Origin: Girardia tigrina
Taxonomy: Eukaryota
Length of the DNA stretch: 64,000 nucleotides
Assembly: GCA_001938485.1 (NCBI GenBank)
Contig: MQRK01231162.1
Coordinates: forward strand, 1 to 64,000
Reading direction: 5' to 3'
Below, piece after piece: positions 48,136 to 59,757 of the stretch. The notes below the pieces were generated by a model. The model saw only the letters and a list, made by a program, of their open reading frames with translations, ran no database searches and was not told the DNA's origin. The translations under genes were made by a program, and so were the position numbers. The number at the start of each line of letters is the position of its first letter. Position 1 is the stretch's first letter.

Positions 48136-50071
48136 TTTCATTGATACTGTAAAGAACGTAAACTAGATAACAAAATTTATTATATAAAATATTGATCGGG
48201 GTTTGCTAACCAATTAAACTGGAAAATCCTCCTCTTTTATATTAAGGCTATATTATATAATATTATATATGCCCCGGGGTCAGTTTATTCAATTGAAATT
48301 GACCTTTCAATTGCATATTTCGGTGACCTCATGACATATGAAATCACCGGAATTTGAACTCTTGTGATGTCATAAGATGTGACATCACTGAAGTTCAATA
48401 TTATTGAATGTTGGGAGGAATGACATCACCACAGATACAATAATGATAAAATAAATTTCAATGAAAATAGCGAATAACAAAGAGGTTATTTTTAAAATTT
48501 CTTTCAATTTTTGTTTCGTTCTATGTAGCTCAGTGTGATGTTGTTTTGTCATTTGACTATTTAATAATTATATTTTTTCTGATTTTGACTTTTCTCCAAC
48601 CTTGCACAGACACAACTAAAAATGATAAAACTCATAAAATAAATACATAAACATGTACATAATCAGGCATGACATAAAAAAATAAAAATAAATAAAATAA
48701 TGACTGTCAGCAAAATAAAATAAATAAGTAGATAAATAAAGATTAATAAATTACAATAATTAGATATATAAGAATAAGAATAAGACGATGCGTTTTGAGA
48801 TAAAAATCTAATTATATGGTTAATCCCCACTATGCATAAAACTAACACATAATAAAACTTCAAAATAATTAAAAAAACATTTTACCAATAAGTCATTGGA
48901 TAAAAATAAATTTATTCCATGTTTTTTTTAAATTAAGTTAAATTACACGACAAGTGATAGATTTGACTCACAAACCAACCATTGTTAGCAATCAATTGCT
49001 GTTTGAGAAAACGACATGTTTACTTTATCGTTCTGTACTTTAATGAGTAACGGAGACATGTGATAAAGATAACAATTAACAGCCAACCAATAATTAATTA
49101 GAACTCCAAAGATCAAAACCAGGAGTTGCATATGAGGTAAATGTTTCTTTTTAAATCTCGAATAAAAGTTTGTAGATATGAAGTTTTTGTCATTGTATAT
49201 CATTTTAATATTTAAAATATCAGATAAAAGGTAAATTAAAAATTTTCTCTTGTCTTACAGTTAGTACAAGCTGGTCATTTGATACATTCCTATATGAAGT
49301 AAGGGTCAATTTATTTTAGTGTCTCGTACATGCTGTTGAACAAGTTCTTAATGTAAATAAAAATAAATAAGTTCGGGTAGTACACTTTCTATGTTATAAA
49401 TATTTATTTCATTCAATTCAAAGCATCAAAGGTTCATCTTTAAAACACAGCTTTATAATTATAATCTTTTGACATTTGATTATTGGAGGTCAAACTAAAG
49501 TTTTCATATATCTTGTAAAAGTAAAATTCTGCCGTTTGAATACTAAAAAAGCATATTTTTATGTGTACTTACATGTATATAGTCGGTTTCATTGAATAGA
49601 TTAAGAGATTTATTCAAAATTATTTATAAAAATATAAAATATAAAAAAGCGAACAAACCCCAAACCATTATCGTAAGACTGAAATGATATATCTGAAATT
49701 CGTTTAGCGCGGAAATATCGGTTTTGACATCGCGCTTTTGTCGTGCCCGTAATTGTCGGGATACCAAAAATACCTTGGGTTAAGTAAAGATGAAGAAAAT
49801 TTTCAATTTCCAAAAAGATTATCTCATTTAAAAATTAACAAAAAAAGAAAACGGATCTTTTTATACTTTAGAAAATGGTGAGTTGAACAGGAACTGTTTG
49901 ATCATGTTATTTTTATATGACAACTGGCCTAGTTCACATTTTGTGAGTTCGATACCTCTTCATTATTATCTTTCTGTTAATAATTCAAAAATATATTATG
50001 ATTATAGTTTTTATAATTTATATATTCATTAATGTGAGGAATATTTTAAATTGTATGAATCTGTGAATGTA

Positions 50072-51563
50072 TACTACTGAACAAAATATTTGCAATTACA
50101 TTTTGGTGCATTTTTAAAAGTTTTAGGTAAACTAATTCTTTTTTAAACTAAAGTCAACCTATTGATGTATCATAATATATATTGACACATTTGTTTGTTT
50201 TAATAGTTCAATAAATAATAATGAATTTGCGTATTTTTGTAATGTTTTTTTGGCCACATTTTTGCATTACTATATTTTAATGTTTTGTAATTAATTATTN
50301 AATGTTATTTTGATAGATATATTATTTTTAGATATTTAGAATGACGCTAAGCGTTGAAAAAATTGATATAATTAAAAATTATTTATTGAAAGGAACCTCC
50401 AAAAAGGTCATAGCTGAGAGCCTAAATGTTAGCCTGAGGACGATTTATAGTGTCTCAAGTGGTGCAAGAAGTTTTAATCCTCCAAGGAATTCAACCTCGA
50501 AGAAATATAAAATAAACAATGAAATTAAAAAAGCTATAGTGTCTTTAGAAAAGGGTCATAAAAAAGTGACATCAGTGGCAATTGGCAATATATTGTCCAN
50601 NNNNNNNNNNNNNNNNNNNNNNNNNNNNNNNNNNNNNNNNNNNNNNNNNNNNNNNNNNNNNNNNNNNNNNNNNNNNNNNNNNNNNNNNNNNNNNNNNGCC
50701 AAAAGAGTAGAAATAGTGCGGTCATGGATTATTGAAAATGTCGATTTTGACAAAGTTGTTTTTTCTGATGAGTGCCGCTTTTCTCTCGACGGCAACGATA
50801 ACTTTATGTCATGGAGCGAAGATAATAACACACAGCGTGCAAGATGACCGTTTGGTGGTGGCTCAATAATGATTTGGGGTTGCATTAGCCGTGATGGACC
50901 ATTGCTTGTTAGAAGAGTTGAAGGCACCATTAATTCTAATTCCTATTGTGATATGTTGAAGGACGATATATTTCCGTTGCTAAAGAATGAAATAGATTCA
51001 TTTTTATTCCAACAAGACAACGCGCGTGCGCACACAAGCAAGAAAACCATTGAGATGCTTACTGCTGAAAAAGTAGACATATTACCCTGGCCAGCTCATA
51101 GCCGTGACTTATCTCCTATAGAGAAAGTCTGGAGTATTAATAAGCAGAGATTATATAATGGTCCACAATTTGATGGCAAAGAGTCACTATGGTCTGGAAT
51201 TTGTCATGAAGTCGATAAAATCAATGATGAAGAGTTTGGTATTTTATCAAACTTATATAGACATTGTAAAGAAAATGTGTGTCTATTATTAAAGAATGAT
51301 GGTGCATTATTGCGATAATAAATGTTACTTAGTTTTATTTTTATTACTAATAAAAAAATTAAATGAGTGCAAAAATGCGGCCAAAAAAAACATTACAAAA
51401 ATACCCAAATTCATTATTATCTAATAAACTATTAAAACAAACAAATGTGTCAATGTATATTATAATACATCAATAGGTTGACTTTAGTTTAAAAAAGAAC
51501 TAATTTACCTAAAACTTTTAAAAATGCACGAAAATGTAATTGCAAATATTTTGTCCAGTAGTA
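50072..51563 (+). mobile_element. Tc1-like DD34E transposon with TIRs of about 195 bp
   Basis: Long TIRs 50072-50267 / 51367-51563, TA TSD. Confidence 0.95.
50341..51318 (+). pseudogene. Tc1 transposase with one visible in-frame stop
   Basis: VVFSDECRF, FQQDNARAH, DLSPIEKVW (34-residue spacing); TGA at 50845-50847 between two in-frame ORFs. Confidence 0.92.
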
Positions 51564-51652
51564 TATTAATGTTGTATGTTGATTTTGAGTATGCTGAACT
51601 TAGAATGGGGATTCTCCCACCCAGATGGAAATTGCTATTTTTTTTGTATTTA

Positions 51653-51860
51653 CACTCATACCTCGCTATACGGCCGCTCTTTATACGGCTTTTCGCTATA
51701 ACGGCCTACTTTAATTATGGCACTTTTTCGATTTACGGCCTAGAATTTTTCGTTATACGGCAAAAAAAAATTTTGAAAAAAGTGTGAAAAAAACATTAAT
51801 ATACATATTTTCTAGGCCGTATCTAGGAACGTATCTAGGCCGTATATCGAGGTATGAGTG
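51653..51860. mobile_element. pogo/Tigger-like MITE
   Basis: TIR cactcatacctcg.tatacggcc / ggccgtata.cgaggtatgagtg, TA TSD, internal tacggc repeats. Confidence 0.85.
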
Positions 51861-52860
51861 TACAGTGATTGACTATTCAAACATAATTAAAATAAAATTA
51901 TAAGTTAAGCTTAATATTTAAAAAAAAGAAAACATTTAATTAGATTTAAATTAAATTCATTTCTAACAATTTTATAAAATTTTCATTTTTTGAGTATTTA
52001 TGAAGAAATAATTAAAATTATTATTTTTAATTAATATTTTTAGAAATTAAATATTTTAAAAAAAATTAGAAAAATTGTTCGAATAATCACGATTAAAAAT
52101 AGAAATAAAAGAAACAATTAGAGCGATGTCAAACGGTGACGATGACTCTGAATGTGATTGTAATAAAAATTCAAATGAAAATTGTCTCAATGTTCTTAAC
52201 AATTAATATGTAAGTACGCAGTAAATATACTTCAACGCAGAAACGTTATTTCAATTGTTTCCCTTTGACAAGTTCCTTTTGTTTTACATTTATATCCATA
52301 TATTAATCCTGTTGAGTACCATTAGTCCACTCGGGGTCCCTTTTGGTTTTTTGTATTTGAAACGCGTTATTTTGGATTGGAATTTTTCATTTACTTGTTT
52401 AGTGCTACGTGTTCACATGTGTACTCTTTTTATAAATATGTTTTGCATAGGCTACCAAATCTTTCAGTTCCAGAGGACATCAGAAATTGAAACGGACTGG
52501 ACTGATGAGATAAATTTTTATTTTTAACCTAGAATAAAAAAAACTTTTTCTGGTGAAAAATAGTTGGTCCCTTAGGGGTGACCAGCAAAATGACGCATAA
52601 CTCGTTAGCGTTGTTTACATATTTTTATCAGTACATTATATATAATTATTCCTTACCATTACTCGTCTTCGTTGGGATTTTTATGTTTTTTTTGCGAATA
52701 GATATTATTCTATTAAAATTATTAAAAACCAAAAAATATTAAAATTTAATTTTATCATACACATCATATTACCTGACATAATTGCTGAATATTTTTCAGG
52801 TGTAAAGGTTTATAGTTTATAGGATTAAAGCTTATCAATAAAAATGTTTATCAAAAAAAA

Positions 52861-53199
52861 GGTCCTTTCCACGTGGTGTCCCTGGGAAACTAGAGCATGT
52901 TCTAGGCTAAAGTGTCCGAAGCTTGCCTTGTTGGGGTGCTGACCAACATAATACGGGGGTCTGGACTTGCAATCCACCCCTTTAAAAGGCATGCTATCCG
53001 AGCGGGATCGTGGAAACGTCTTTTGGCGGGGCCAATGATCAGTTGAGGGGTGAAACCCAATGACACAACCGACTCGGCTCCTTATAGGCTCTACGAGTCA
53101 TTAGCGCGGGTTGCCGCGTTGAGGAGGCCTACAAAGGTCCTTACCTTTAAAGATTCATGTGAGTATCACCACATATGGTCGAAAGGCTAGATCCCAAAT
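52861..53199 (+). mobile_element. GC-rich 5' UTR-like fragment of a non-LTR retroelement (RTE-like or SINE)
   Basis: Sharp GC island with several hairpins directly downstream of the ribozyme core; no ORF follows. Confidence 0.45.
52864..52917 (+). ncRNA. HDV-like ribozyme core (5'-truncated)
   Basis: L3 UCCACGU, GGU, P1 3' strand GUCCCU, GG for P1.1, GAAA, P4 CUAGAG/UUCUAG, J4/2 GCUAA; same order as R2/RTE HDV-like ribozymes. P1/P2 5' strands not found and P3 is weak. Confidence 0.6.
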
Positions 53200-53418
53200 A
53201 TGAATGTAAGAGGATTCCATAATAATTAACAAAACAGAAAATATATATTTGTGATTTTAAAAATTACACGAGTTGTTAATATTATTTAAACAAATTCAAG
53301 AGATTAATTTGAATATTTTGGANNNNNNNNNNNNNNNNNNNNNNNNNNNNNNNNNNNNNNNNNNNNNNNNNNNNNNNNNNNNNNNNNNNNNNNNNNNNNN
53401 NNNNNNNNNNNNNNNNNN

Positions 53419-56400
53419 CTAATGATTTCATAAGGTCCCTCATAACGATCCGAACCTTTCTGCCGATTTTCTATTTTCACTAATACCCAGTCTCCAATCC
53501 GAAAATTCCGTTTTGTGGTAGTAGTCACTGGTTTTCCGATCTCTATTTTTTTATTTCATCAATGATCTTCTTGTTATCAAACTCGTAATGTCGAGAACCA
53601 TCAAGAGTCAATCGTTTCCCTAAAATTACTTCCGCCGGACTGTATCCAATCGTACTTTGTACTGATGCGTTCATACTGAACTCTATTTCTGGTAGTAATT
53701 NNNNNNNNNNNNNNNNNNNNNNNNNNNNNNNNNNNNNNNNNNNNNNNNNNNNNNNNNNNNNNNNNNNNNNNNNNNNNNNNNNNNNNNNNNNNNNNNNNNN
53801 NNNNNNNNNNNNNNNNNNNNNNNNNNNNNNNNNNNNNNNNNNNNNNTTCGAATAACCGAGATTCGAATACTTTTCCATGGTCCACGTGAATGCACGCTGG
53901 AGCTCCAAACCGAAATATCCATTTCTGTTGTAACGTCTCTATTGTTGTTGTCTCATCTTGATTATTTACTGCCGCAAGGCTAACATATCTACTGAACCTG
54001 TCTATTATTCCGAGAACATACTTTTTCCCATTAATGATTGGCATCGGTCCACAAAAATCCATGTAAATGTCGTCCAATGGGCGATATGTTATCAGATTCA
54101 TTGTTTGTTCTTTTGTCTTTCCGGTGTAAGTTTTTGCTGTTTGACATGCTGTACATGAACGTATTATTGTCTCTGCTATTTTCTTAAATTCTTCCATATC
54201 ATACTCCTCNNNNNNNNNNNNNNNNNNNNNNNNNNNNNNNNNNNNNNNNNNNNNNNNNNNNNNNNNNNNNNNNNNNNNNNNNNNNNNNNNNNNNNNNNNN
54301 NNNNNNNNNNNNNNNNNNNNNNNNNNNNNNNNNNNNNNNNNNNNNNNNNNNNNNNNNTTCCTTTCTCTTATTGCTTTCATAATTTCTCTAATTTCCTTAC
54401 TATCTTGTTGCCACGGGATTGAAAGAGTATCTTCATTTATTGCTAACAGTCGCGTCTTCAATTTGCCAGTTTTAGCTTGCTTGTGCTGTATAAGACATTG
54501 CGAACATACCAGGCAATCCTTTCTAGATAGTGCGTCCGCATTTTGGTGTAATTCCCCTTTTCGGTATTCTAATTTCATGTCCAGACTACTAAAAAAATTC
54601 ATCCAATTCTGAAATTGTGGGGTAATGGGCTTTTTCGTCGTCATCATAAACTCGATCGCCTTATGGTCTGTCCGTAACTTGAATCGGGCCCCATACAAGT
54701 AATGCTTAAAATGTTGCGTAAAATNNNNNNNNNNNNNNNNNNNNNNNNNNNNNNNNNNNNNNNNNNNNNNNNNNNNNNNNATTGATTTCGATCCATATGC
54801 AATCACCTGTTCTTCTCCTTTCTCATTTTTCTGCGACAGTACTGCTCCTATTGTGTCAAAAGACGCATCGGTGTCTAAAATAAATTCTTTTTCAAAATCT
54901 GGATGACACAATATCGGCGAAGATGTTAATGCTTCCTTCAATTTATGAAAAGCTGCCGAATGGGCTTCTGACCAATGCATAACATCTTTTGAGCTTCCAC
55001 ACATTTCTTCTAATATTTTTGCCAATTTNNNNNNNNNNNNNNNNNNNNNNNNNNNNNNNNNNNNNNNNNNNNNNNNNNNNNNNNNNNNNNNNNNNNNNNN
55101 NNNNNNNNNNNNNNNNNNNNNNNNNNNNNNNNNNNNNNNNNNNNGTCTTGATTCCATCTCTGTTCACTATATGACCTAAAAATCTCAACTCTTCCTGAAA
55201 GAATTTACATTTCTCTGGATTTATTCTCAGTCCTGCCGCTTCTATCCGTGTAAATAGTTTTTCCAATATATCTATGTGTTCTGCTTCAGTTTTCGAAAAT
55301 ATCAGGATGTCGTCCAAATATGCCATGGCTTCTTTCCACAACATTTCTTTCAAAACGTCCGTCATCAGTTTCTGAAACGTCGCCGGGGCTGCTGCAATAC
55401 CAAATGGCATTCTCGTGAAACAATATTGTCCCGTTTTAGTTGAGAATGNNNNNNNNNNNNNNNNNNNNNNNNNNNNNNNNNNNNNNNNNNNNNNNNNNNN
55501 NNNNNNNNNNNNNNNNNNNNNNNNNNNNNNNNNNNNNNNNNNNNNNNNNNNNNNNNNNNNNNNNNNNNNNNNNNNNNNNNNNNNNNNNNNNNNNNNNNNN
55601 NNNNNNNNNNNNNNNNNNNNNNNNNNNNNNNNNNNNNNNNNNNNNNNNNNNNNNNNNNNNNNNTGTATTCCATGGTGAAGAGCATTTCTCTATTATCCCA
55701 TGTCTTTCAAGATTACTAATCGCATCATCTATGTGTCGTTCCAGGTGGTTTGGCTGCCTCCGCGGTTTTTGTAGAATTGGTTGTTCTGATGTGTCAATTC
55801 TGTGTTTAACCAGCGTCGTCTTCCCTATATCCCATCTTCCAGCCATAAAAATATTTTTAAACTTGTTGATACATTTATATAATTTATTTCCTTCCCTTAA
55901 ATTTAACTTTTCTTTCGCATTCAGAAATCGCATTTTATCGGTATATTCCAACTTATTTATATAAGGATTTAAGGCGCAAATTTATCCATTAGTTTTAGTC
56001 ATATAATTCTGATCCTTCATTGTACTCTCTCTGCTCCATCTCAGTTCTAAACCAATCGCTCTGATCAATGTTATTCCGAAAATAATTGCTGGGAATACCG
56101 CTTTTGCCACATAAAATAACTGGTTAACTCTCTTATTTTTCCATACAACTATATCCATTCCACTACCGTTCGCACATATTACCGATGATATTGTCTTCTT
56201 ATTTATTCTAATCTGCAACTTTTGTGCGATTTCCAAGTCAATAACATTGATTCGGGCACCAGTGTCTAATAAACAGTTATTCTCCATTCCTTCTATCCTT
56301 GCCTTAATACTGGGTCTATCGTTAAATTCACTATAGTCTAATTTCTCATTCGGTGCAATCTCACATTTCACTATCTTATACTCTTGAACTGAACTATATA

Positions 56401-56608
56401 TAAATTTTTTTGTTGTTATTACAGGTTTATTATAATCGTTAAAACTACATACATTATAATTATTATATAATACATTATGATATGCATTACTATAATTAAA
56501 ATTACAATTACAATCATTGATATTACAAATAACAGGATCCAAAACATTCTTACTTTTTAATTTATGGCTCCTATCATCTCTTGACCTGATAGGGCCTCCG
56601 CATTTCCC
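53419..56608 (-). pseudogene. pol: Pol (protease, RT, RNase H, integrase), disrupted
   Basis: LLDTGA, MPFGIAAAPATFQ, YLDD, LDTDAS, RTDHKA, IYMDFCGP, IHVDHG, YEGPY. Stop and frame change at about 55982; other apparent shifts coincide with N gaps. Confidence 0.92.
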
Positions 56609-57525
56609 GATATGTCTCGGTCACATCCGTCTATCTCCTCTATTTCGTCGATTCCGGCAACATTCGATTTATACCGGTTCGATTTCCAACTGATCGGATC
56701 TCGATTCATCTGCTGGCCTTCTTGTTTGAAACATTGGTACCATAAATGTCCTTGTCCCTTACAATTTGCGCATTTCAGATATGGGCACTCTCTCCGAATA
56801 TGTCTTTTGGCACGGCATCCGTAACACCGTTTGACGTTTTCGGGACATTCCCGTCTCATATGACCAATTTTTCTACAAATAAAACATTCAATCACCTTAC
56901 TCGCCGACGTCTGGTATCTCTGTTGCTTTCTTTGATCATAATTTTCATTTCGTTTTATTAATTCCGGTCTGGGTTCCCTTGTTTGTTGGAAACGAATTGG
57001 CTTCCCGAAATTTGATTTTTCCCGCAACACATTTGCAAAAGTCTTTTTCTGTTGCAATAGCGCAATCTCGTTGGACTGTACTTCAGCCTTGATGTGCTCC
57101 ATTTTTTCGATCACCGTTTTAANNNNNNNNNNNNNNNNNNNNNNNNNNNNNNNNNNNNNNNNNNNNNNNNNNNNNNNNNNNNNNNNNNNNNNNNNNNNNN
57201 NNNNNNNNNNNNNNTGTTTGTTCCACTTGTGTAACAGTACTCTGTCCACCATTTTTTCAATTTTGTTGAAAAATACTGTCGCTGAGTCGGTTCCCTTCCT
57301 GTAAGTCATCAATTCGTTGAGATCCTGGATTAGGGATGATGGTCGTTTGAAAGCCTTTCTCAATCGATCCTTGAAATCCGTAATTTTGCTATCCCCTGTT
57401 TCATACGTGGCTAACATATCTCGGTCCACGAACGCTTTAACGATTGTCGCTTGAATAGCCTCGTTGATCTGAGCAACTTCAAAGAATCGCTGGCAATCGG
57501 CTATAAATTCTTCTATGTCCTGTGA
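56557..57525 (-). CDS. gag: Gag with three CCHC zinc knuckles
   Basis: CFICRKIGHMRREC, CYGCRAKRHIRREC, CANCKGQGHLWYQC; frame is open upstream into the gap (SQDIEEFIADCQRFF). Confidence 0.9.
   Translation of the reverse strand, partial: SQDIEEFIADCQRFFEVAQINEAIQATIVKAFVDRDMLATYETGDSKITDFKDRLRKAFKRPSSLIQDLNELMTYRKGTDSATVFFNKIEKMVDRVLLHKWNKXXXXXXXXXXXXXXXXXXXXXXXXXXXXXXXXKTVIEKMEHIKAEVQSNEIALLQQKKTFANVLREKSNFGKPIRFQQTREPRPELIKRNENYDQRKQQRYQTSASKVIECFICRKIGHMRRECPENVKRCYGCRAKRHIRRECPYLKCANCKGQGHLWYQCFKQEGQQMNRDPISWKSNRYKSNVAGIDEIEEIDGCDRDISGNAEALSGQEMIGAIN
56566..56608 (-). promoter_or_regulatory. Programmed -1 ribosomal frameshift signal (gag-pol)
   Basis: G_GGA_AAU heptamer in gag frame (56608-56602), 5-nt spacer, stem GGC-CCUAUCA / UGAUAGG-a-GCC; the -1 frame is open into the protease ORF. 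Confidence 0.85.
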
Positions 57526-59757
57526 CNNNNNNNNNNNNNNNNNNNNNNNNNNNNNNNNNNNNNNNNNNNNNNNNNNNNNNNNNNNNNNNNNNNNNNNNNN
57601 NNNNNNNNNNNNNNNNNNNNNNNNNNNNNNNNNNNNNNNNNNNNGAGTTGTTAATATTATTTAAACAAATTCAAGAGATTAATTTGAATATTTTGGATCC
57701 ATTATTGTAATATATTTAGTATAATAAAGATAATATAAATATCATATAATTATTTATCCTTACAATGAATTTTTAACTTCCTAATTTATGGATATATTAT
57801 CGAAATTTTGTGTAACATTATCAGTGCCTGGTAATATAATCTTAAAGCAGTTACAAAATATTAAAAAAATAATTAACCCAAAAAACAGTCATTTGACTGA
57901 TTGTATAATTTGTCACTGTCAGAATAATTATCAACGTTTATTAATGTTATTAATTTCGATTTCTAATTAACTCGAAAATTATATTATTATTTTATTCTCA
58001 TTTTAATAAAAAAATAAAAAATTTTATTCAAAATTAATTATGATAAAAATTACTGATATAAATATTTTTATAATGAAATTTACACAAAAATATTTATTGA
58101 AAAAAATAATTATTTATTAATCAAACAAAATTATTAGAAATAGAATTAAAATCTGAAAATTTAATCAAATAATCTAATTTTAATAAAATATTATTATTAA
58201 AAAAATCATTTCTTTTGATAATTAACTTTTCTATTTTTCTATTTTTGAATTTTAATTAATTTTTGTTTTTTTGTTATTTAATCTATTTTAATGACGAATA
58301 AAATTTAAAAGTTTAAATGAAATGATTTAATGGAAATATATTTTTGTTTCAGACAAGAAATTAAAAAAAATAAATTAATAAAAGGAAAAATTATCGACGA
58401 GACAAATTGTCTATAATGTTTTATTTATTTATTTAATTGTGATTATTGATGAATCACTTGTTATTTATTCTATTAAATAATAAATAGAAATGATTAATTT
58501 AGTAATTTGAAACTTTATTTCATGAGAATATTTTCACAAATATTTATTTTTCATAATGCAATATTTCCTTTTTTATTTATTTCGTTTTGGTTTTGTAATA
58601 TAACACTGAATGTAACGTGAAGAATGAATCATTTTTCTAACATTCCAGTGCCAAATAGACTAGATTTATTATTTGTATTTTTTAATATTTATTTTCAATA
58701 TCTCAATCTAAAATGGACTGATATTTTAAAACTAATGTTAGTAGCTTTGTTGAGTTCATTAAATTTTTGAATTTAAAATCTAATCAATTTAATAATTACA
58801 TTTCGATAAGTAGATTCATAGATTATGTTAAAATAAAATTTTCATAAAATAGCGCAAAAAATTTATTTATATAATACTAATTTTTAATATTTAATACGAA
58901 ATCAATAAACTGATTTATTAATAAAGTAAATTTTAATTCTATATGAAACGTAAAATTTAATATTTGAAAAATAATAAATAAATTAAAAAATTATTTTTAA
59001 CTTTTATTTAAATATAAAACAAATCAAAAATCATATGAATTAATAAATTTTAAATTAAAATATAATTGTTTTGAGATAAAAGGAAAATATAACTTTCATT
59101 AAAAAAAGGATTAAATGAAAACAACTGAAAATATAATTTTCAATTTTTAAGAACATATAAATTTATTTTTATTTTTAATAAGTGTAATTTTATCGAAATG
59201 GAAAGGTAATTTAAAAAATGTTTAATTGAACTAAAATTGATTTATATAATATTAATTGGAGATGCAGAATGTTTCTACTACACGCTAGTGTCAACGTGTC
59301 AAATAAAATTAAAATTTGTGATTTTAATTTTATTTAAAACGTTATTTTATCAAAATCTTAATGTAATTTTAAAACGATTATGAAAACGAAAGGAAAATGT
59401 GATTTTAATTTTATTTTGTTGAAAATGTGATTTTATCGAAATCTAAATATAATTTTAAAACGATTACATTGAAGTTGGAAATTTGAACTCATTAAATTAG
59501 CCATTATTTAAGATTTCAAATTTTCGCAATTATTTCCGATAATTTTTATTTATTCTCATCAAAAAAGACCAATTCACCGACTAATATTAATTCAAATTTA
59601 ATTTACTAAATATCAACGAAATCAAATTTACAATTCATAATTATAATTAAATTTATTGCCTTAAACAAATCAACCTTTCAAAATTTCCATTTCACAATAA
59701 TAAATTTTTTTACAATAAAATTTACAATAATAATTTAAATCAAAATTCGAAAGCCAA

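Follow-up and report, generated by a model that had tools for sequence, protein, structure and literature searches.

What kind of element leaves behind only the downstream half of a self-cleaving ribozyme, and how did it come to lie where it does? The question is raised by a 64,000-nucleotide stretch of Girardia tigrina DNA (contig MQRK01231162.1, positions 1 to 64,000), here called the window, in which a preliminary description recognized an orphan HDV-like ribozyme core at the head of a hairpin-rich island. We consider it probable that the window holds a 5'-truncated, ORF-less repeat, the full copies of which are headed by a predicted ribozyme and owe their mobility to related LINEs acting in trans, single-ORF APE-RT (RTE-like) elements with a preference for one site in 28S rDNA and for sites resembling it.

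We found the ribozyme parts at the places first assigned to them: L3 TCCACGT (52868-52874), P3' GGT (52875-52877), P1' GTCCCT (52878-52883), GGG (52884-52886), P4 (52890-52905), J4/2 GCTAAA (52906-52911), which includes the putative catalytic C at 52907, and P2' GTGTCCGA (52912-52919). The 5' strands of P1 and P2 are absent, as had been noted, and so is that of P3; a descriptor search of the window yielded no complete fold. Completion of the ribozyme by the upstream flank was rejected, since the descriptor gives no complete fold there, and an Rfam search with the window copy (E up to 10) gave no match to an HDV-type model. That the motif reflects more than chance follows from full copies elsewhere, which complete the fold, and from the pairing kept in a sister family.

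Table 1. Features of the window copy and its immediate surroundings.
Feature	Position	Strand
5' target-site duplication copy, 10 bp, AAAGGTCCTT	52858..52867	+
Family A element copy (short subfamily), 5'-truncated, without its first 47 nt	52868..53131	+
3' portion of HDV-like ribozyme (L3, P3', P1', P1.1', P4, J4/2, P2')	52868..52919	+
Non-coding body with several hairpins	52920..53122	+
Conserved 3' end, GGAGGCC-TA	53123..53131	+
3' target-site duplication copy	53133..53142	+
Ty3/gypsy-type LTR retrotransposon, unrelated neighbour, own 5-bp duplication	53205..57764	-

The boundaries of the element had to be redrawn (Table 1): the span of 52861-53199 initially proposed shrinks to 52868-53131, bounded by a 10-bp duplication, and because the copy begins at L3 its first 47 nt are absent. 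At most target sites a TA stands before the duplication, and the final TA of the element coincides with it; ORFs in its body reach at most 41 aa, and its nearest copy is 97% identical. The bases at 53143-53199 matched no other fetched locus. The gypsy element, thought to have inserted right at the 3' edge, starts 62 nt beyond the duplication and thus does not abut the element. A link between the two was rejected. The gypsy is a separate element with a duplication of its own; it matches RNase H, integrase and CCHC domains, and its LTRs are identical over the visible shared 53 nt. The three hairpins singled out in the island (53047, 53071/53094 and 53105) are present, but the island as a whole barely folds better than shuffled sequence (z -1.5, with 10 of 100 shuffles equally good) and is not distinctive on either strand (z -1.5 and -1.9). 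The site into which this copy inserted scores below zero on the target matrix described below. With the 5' strands of P1, P2 and P3 missing, the window copy is predicted to be inactive, an ordinary dead fragment of a known kind of element. Elsewhere in the window we observed a DNA transposon relic (50070-51565) with 182-nt inverted repeats (95%) and matches to DDE_3 and HTH, and a small MITE-like element (51651-51862) with 25-nt inverted ends and internal short repeats.

The search for further copies advocated in the preliminary description uncovered a dispersed repeat family, which we call family A. Among 975 first-look candidates, 40 were scored; in each the main match starts within 2 nt of 52868, and none extends past 53136. 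The genome contains 183 exact occurrences of a 22-mer from the ribozyme core (control 0) and 199 of a 13-mer from the 3' end (control 5). Family A is ORF-less, has about 200 exact-motif copies, and measures about 310 or 355 nt at full length. Target duplications, mostly of 9-12 bp, were found in 24 of 30 fetched loci, and in 13 of these 24 the copy opens with GGGGAC, or with a variant differing by one base, exactly 47 nt before L3. Of 40 further copies selected through the 3' end, 39 also had the family body upstream of it. The longest ATG-initiated ORF in family A copies runs to 23-64 aa. Family A therefore displays the traits of a non-LTR retroposon, namely dispersed copies, a fixed 3' end, variable 5' truncation, target duplications and no ORF. 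The idea of a non-autonomous, ribozyme-led retroelement family is thus supported by the full copies, the 9-12 bp duplications and the absent ORF. The companion suggestion, that copies lead into an RT ORF, was not borne out by any copy examined; instead, related ribozyme-headed APE-RT LINEs share the target. The extra length of two 2.1-kb 'long' copies comes from an unrelated insert, with inverted ends and no RT, that interrupts the family A sequence. We also rejected a classical SINE with a tRNA, 7SL or 5S head: Rfam revealed no small-RNA head in the full copies, and a Pol III A box is absent from both full copies inspected, one of which contains a B-box-like word.

Full copies supply what the window copy lacks. 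As anticipated, they carry GGGGAC, ACC and TCGGACAT, so that the family A fold comprises P1 GGGGAC/GTCCCT, P2 TCGGACAT/GTGTCCGA, P3 ACC/GGT and P1.1 CC/GG, and the nested double pseudoknot of P1, P1.1, P2, P3 and P4 is present. J4/2, GC(T/C)AAA, contains the catalytic C and a conserved A, and L3 TCCACGT falls within the 7-8 nt rule. In loci L001-L139 the descriptor gave 14 distinct parses of the whole fold; 884,776 reversed bases yielded none. We then aligned four family A heads with five heads of a sister family, family B, leaving P1 out because its 5' strands share no columns: 96.7% of 153 alignment cells pair, with two-sided changes in P2, P3 and P1.1, against 17-50% in slid controls; the aligned heads are related to each other, and shuffle counts are for that reason not probabilities. 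The sequence of P1 varies across families while its pairing is kept. Among 27 distinct junctions that follow a 10-mer of 28S rDNA (see below), the descriptor accepted 10, each with its P1 beginning at the junction (P2 is doubtful in 2 of these), as compared to 20 of 540 shuffled junctions, only 1 of which reached a score of 35; the other 17 gave no fit under the set limits, several of them parsing by eye and some being truncated. An Rfam search of four loci with fuller copies (E up to 1) matched no HDV family. From these comparisons, we predict that full family A copies begin with an HDV-like self-cleaving ribozyme.

It seems unlikely that the fold is instead a relic, with family A having spread from an internal Pol III or Pol II promoter and cleavage being unneeded. 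Such a reading would account for the odd register of the cleavage site, with either a spare G after a 6-bp P1 or a pyrimidine at +1 in a 7-bp P1, and for the changes at J4/2 in some family A copies. P1 stems of 6 or 7 bp are, however, normal in R2 ribozymes according to PMC3774820; in addition, compensatory changes keep the pairing, 5' ends fall exactly at the start of P1, and promoter elements amount to the single B-box-like word in two copies, without an A box. In family B the spare G after P1' pairs with a C at the first position. This sister family (L233:104-203, L121, L132) starts CAGGGAT or CGGGGAT, which pairs at 7 of 7 positions with its P1'; CAGGGAT also forms the final heptamer of the 28S duplication and would place a C at the cleavage position. 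The HDV-like ribozymes of LINE-a and of related 5' ends (L091:3569-3810 and L225:116-270) have a 46-47 nt stem-loop inside L3 as well as long J1/2 or P4 segments.

Upstream of the duplications we found a loose motif, RGTGT-N2-AAAA-N2-TTA|C. Beyond one copy, in L022, the sequence is 28S rDNA (it matches the Rfam LSU model from position 2825, E 6e-46), and the 28S site reads GGTGTCAGAAAAGTTA|CCACAGGGAT; the 28S sequence here closely resembles a planarian one printed in S6 Fig of PMC4640811. Nineteen insertion sites (a set that excludes the window copy, the 28S copy, two duplicates and one mis-registered site) match the 28S site at 8.3 of 14 positions, compared to 3.65 for random flanks, with 0 of 100,000 resamples reaching the observed match. 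Similarly, in a second set, formed by the 12 of 40 copies with a callable duplication, the match was 6.4 versus 3.5, three pairs among these being duplicates. We built a matrix from 17 sites, none of them in 28S or Penelope; on it, the 28S site scores 19.3 bits, more than 16 of the 17 training sites, and 0 of 122,866 window positions reach that value. In the best 30 matches to the downstream 28S sequence that were fetched, 17 had an element joined exactly at the 10-mer, and the upstream part of 28S was present in 1. An uninterrupted 28S site was found in none of 22 distinct contexts, and the assembly, in which rDNA is under-represented, consequently gives neither occupancy nor a rate of rDNA insertion.

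Several further arrangements were seen around this site. Two types of 28S sequence, with GGCCACC and GGCGGCC variants, lie downstream of it in L061-L090, and both carry insertions; some planarians have two rDNA types. An AT-rich tandem repeat of about 215 bp (L240, L241, L246, L251, L252, L254, L259) holds the 28S upstream motif and the 10-mer, and stops exactly at the end of the 10-mer, which is how an amplified 5' insertion junction would look. Another short family, ending CCGGATTC, occurs at the same 28S base in L062, L071, L080, L085, L086 and L088. In L220 and L074, 5'-truncated elements are joined to 28S near the R2 site, and the 28S sequence from there to the target is missing.

Which protein could move an element without an ORF? 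Family A shares its exact 28S position with sister short elements and with LINEs of no fewer than three deeply diverged families, up to five elements being stacked in one gene. In the L091 array the order is LINE, short element, LINE, short element and then 28S, with the 10-mer between each, and in L233:80-6400 (G000:C255124) five elements of four kinds lie between the two halves of one 28S gene, separated from one another by the same 10-bp duplication. The LINEs at the site are about 3.9 kb long and encode, in a single ORF, an APE domain, an RT and C-terminal C2H2 fingers; where their 5' ends were seen, these adopt an HDV-like fold. One LINE copy has an unbroken frame of 1241 codons with matches to Exo_endo_phos, RVT_1 and C2H2, and no match to RNase H. 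A single ORF, with APE preceding RT and RNase H lacking, is the RTE-type layout. The LINE families are 32-47% identical in protein sequence, and a quick tree of 67 RT regions, which contained no references for named clades, united three of them with five database proteins in one clade (SH-aLRT 98). Neither the LINE homologues nor the cluster look-ups included a clade-labelled reference, and searches of solved structures and the ESM Atlas returned only generic RT or APE-RT matches. From their motifs, we infer that these LINEs are RTE-like, with Vingi or a separate clade as the alternatives. LINE-a, together with some dispersed copies, shows the same upstream motif and duplication length as the short elements.

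Among the LINEs fetched, none carries family A's own 5' and 3' sequences beyond short core words; what they have in common with family A is core words of 11-30 nt and the terminal GGAGGC(C), and the parent may lie among LINEs that were not sampled. The family A 3' end is closest in wording to that of the LINE-c type, with which it also shares use of a site in Penelope elements, there being no extended homology. A very abundant LINE family (L302-L331), with 2,680 exact tail matches and mostly dispersed, has about 104 nt of 3' end in common with LINE-c.

Mobilisation by an element with a restriction-like endonuclease, either of the planarian LIN9 type or R2, appears very unlikely. The idea draws on LIN9_SM, which inserts at AGAAAA|GTTACC in the same 28S stretch, 4 nt away (PMC4640811), and on L220, in which we recognized by eye an apparent ORF fragment of this type upstream of the R2 site (Pfam zf-RVT only, E 0.014). 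LIN9_SM, however, lies antisense, and S6 Fig of PMC4640811 shows no duplication for it, whereas family A lies in the sense orientation, has 9-12 bp duplications and uses the same junction base as the APE-RT LINEs with which it alternates. The candidate partner LINEs carry APE rather than the restriction-like endonuclease of R2 and NeSL. We thus retain the 28S-site APE-RT LINEs as the likely source of the machinery.

How strictly do these elements keep to the 28S site? Only 4 of 199 family A 3' ends lie at the 28S 10-mer. For LINE-a, it directly follows no fewer than 8 of the 49 exact 3' ends, and LINE-c-type 3' ends were found at 28S in 0 of 30 sampled (of 2,680). Strict rDNA specificity of the R1, R2 or R4 type, with most copies at one position, is not what we observed: 28S targeting is a relaxed preference. 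An Rfam search around 20 metagenomic relatives detected no rRNA. A second hot spot lies in the YIG codons of the Penelope endonuclease, which hold 3 of 30 and 7 of 40 family A copies (8 including one identified by eye) and 4 of 30 LINE-c-type ends; about a fifth of short-element 3' ends lie in this look-alike, which has 11 of 16 upstream bases in common with the 28S site.

These counts bear on two other readings of the target. It is possible, if somewhat doubtful, that the elements and mechanism are as we propose and the LINE endonuclease is merely loose, 28S and Penelope being abundant chance matches rather than evolved targets. About 98% of family A 3' ends lie outside the 28S 10-mer, and the abundant LINE-c-type tail is missing from 28S in the 30 ends sampled; similarly, none of 80 distant metagenome relatives (best-segment identity of 41% or less) has 28S motifs, and the matrix allows us to estimate a chance of a few percent for a 19-bit match somewhere in the rRNA genes. 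Such looseness would nevertheless leave unexplained why all but one of the 17 training sites score below the 28S site and why families only 32-47% identical all use the same base. It also fits poorly with the 5' heptamer of family B: this is identical to the final 7 nt of the 28S duplication and pairs with P1' over its whole length, as would be expected from long residence in 28S co-transcripts under a model in PMC3774820.

Alternatively, the evolved target could be the YIG motif of Penelope endonuclease genes, with 28S secondary. The insertions counted there speak for this, and yet we think it improbable: despite the shared bases the Penelope site scores only 10.2 bits, a value reached at 11 of 122,866 window positions, and 0 of 30 LINE-a 3' flanks lie in it on inspection, several being at 28S. 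Because at least 908 exact empty Penelope sites exist, abundance multiplied by a moderate match may explain the hot spot. A 28S preference extending to look-alike sites remains the reading that we favor.

We propose the following route for family A. The family structure, the duplications, the fold in full copies and the junction base common with the APE-RT LINEs are observed. Since no promoter of its own was found, the RNA would arise from the 28S precursor or from another read-through transcript, and the ribozyme is predicted to cut at or next to the first G of GGGGAC, freeing it. The LINE protein would bind the 3' hairpin ending GGAGGCC and nick the RGTGT-N2-AAAA-N2-TTA|C target; the nick would prime reverse transcription, probably aided by TA microhomology at the RNA end. 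A second cut 9-12 bp downstream would leave the duplication, seen as a footprint, that restores the 3' half of the site. The restored half-site could then be used again, with elements stacking head to tail into arrays. The window copy, whose site no longer fits the motif, may have resulted from incomplete reverse transcription or from 5' joining and would be a dead end.

Ribozyme-headed non-autonomous elements have been described before, among them the R2 and R2/R1 SIDEs (PMC3414825), NARTc/SIDER (PMC4035085) and RTE derivatives (PMC5786205). Like the Drosophila R2 SIDEs and R2/R1 hybrids of PMC3414825, it is short and non-autonomous, has a 5' HDV-like ribozyme and is found in 28S; the hybrids, moreover, borrow the machinery of an APE element and leave duplications. 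Family A differs in its 28S site, in its proposed partner, a single-ORF RTE-like LINE rather than R1 or R2, in the dispersal of most copies at look-alike sites, and in that no LINE among those found was recognized as one from which it would derive by internal deletion. The bipartite RTE derivatives of PMC5786205, which lists RTE among the clades with 5' ribozymes and with non-autonomous derivatives, are similarly ORF-less partners of an RTE-type LINE. The relevant section of that paper names R1, R2 and R4, not RTE, as target-specific, whereas the preference for a 28S site seen here belongs to RTE-like LINEs and their partners. NARTc, RIME and SIDER, which accompany L1Tc/ingi, are likewise short and dispersed with an HDV-like ribozyme related to that of the LINE (PMC4035085). 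Those elements belong to the trypanosomatid Ingi clade and have the Pr77 head in common; here, in contrast, LINE and short-element heads share the catalytic core only, and the LINE has no RNase H match.

At the 28S site itself the closest parallel is LIN9_SM of the planarian Schmidtea, which uses the same 28S stretch, 4 nt from our junction, and differs in being NeSL-related, with a restriction-like endonuclease, an antisense orientation and no duplication in the figure that shows it (PMC4640811, S6 Fig). This is likely a convergence on one site, by analogy with Keno and Utopia on U2 in the same source. In the relevant section of PMC4640811, the APE elements with target specificity are those of the R1 and Tx1 clades, which resemble the 28S-site LINEs in having an APE endonuclease that prefers a multicopy gene. 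The LINEs found here differ from them in their single ORF of about 3.9 kb, their C-terminal C2H2 fingers and their site. R1 and Tx1 elements have two ORFs.

In the openly accessible papers searched, no RTE-type element was described at this 28S site, and none of them was matched by the 28S target 13-mer. LIN9_SM was found in a supplement and on the opposite strand, and text searches with the 13-mer accordingly miss supplements. The families described here may already be named in Repbase, in subscription literature or in bioRxiv supplements. As far as we have checked, a relaxed 28S preference common to several RTE-like LINEs and their ribozyme-headed passengers is new. More tentatively, and as a step that we would not yet favor, a hitherto undescribed RTE-like lineage may have evolved recognition of a conserved 28S site, becoming a third APE group to target rDNA besides R1 and Tx1; it would support ribozyme-headed parasites in arrays and spill onto look-alikes such as Penelope; the ribozymes involved would depart from HDV rules by their +1 C, derived from the 28S target, and their long stem-loop in L3.

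RTE-based gene-writing tools integrate at random (PMC13708176). A single-ORF RTE-like protein with a natural 28S bias, together with a natural 310-nt passenger that exposes the minimal cis signals, makes it possible to test how target choice is acquired or lost in APE elements, including the question whether it is the C2H2 fingers that recognize the upstream motif. The same elements supply natural variants of the HDV-like ribozyme with unusual features at +1 and in L3.
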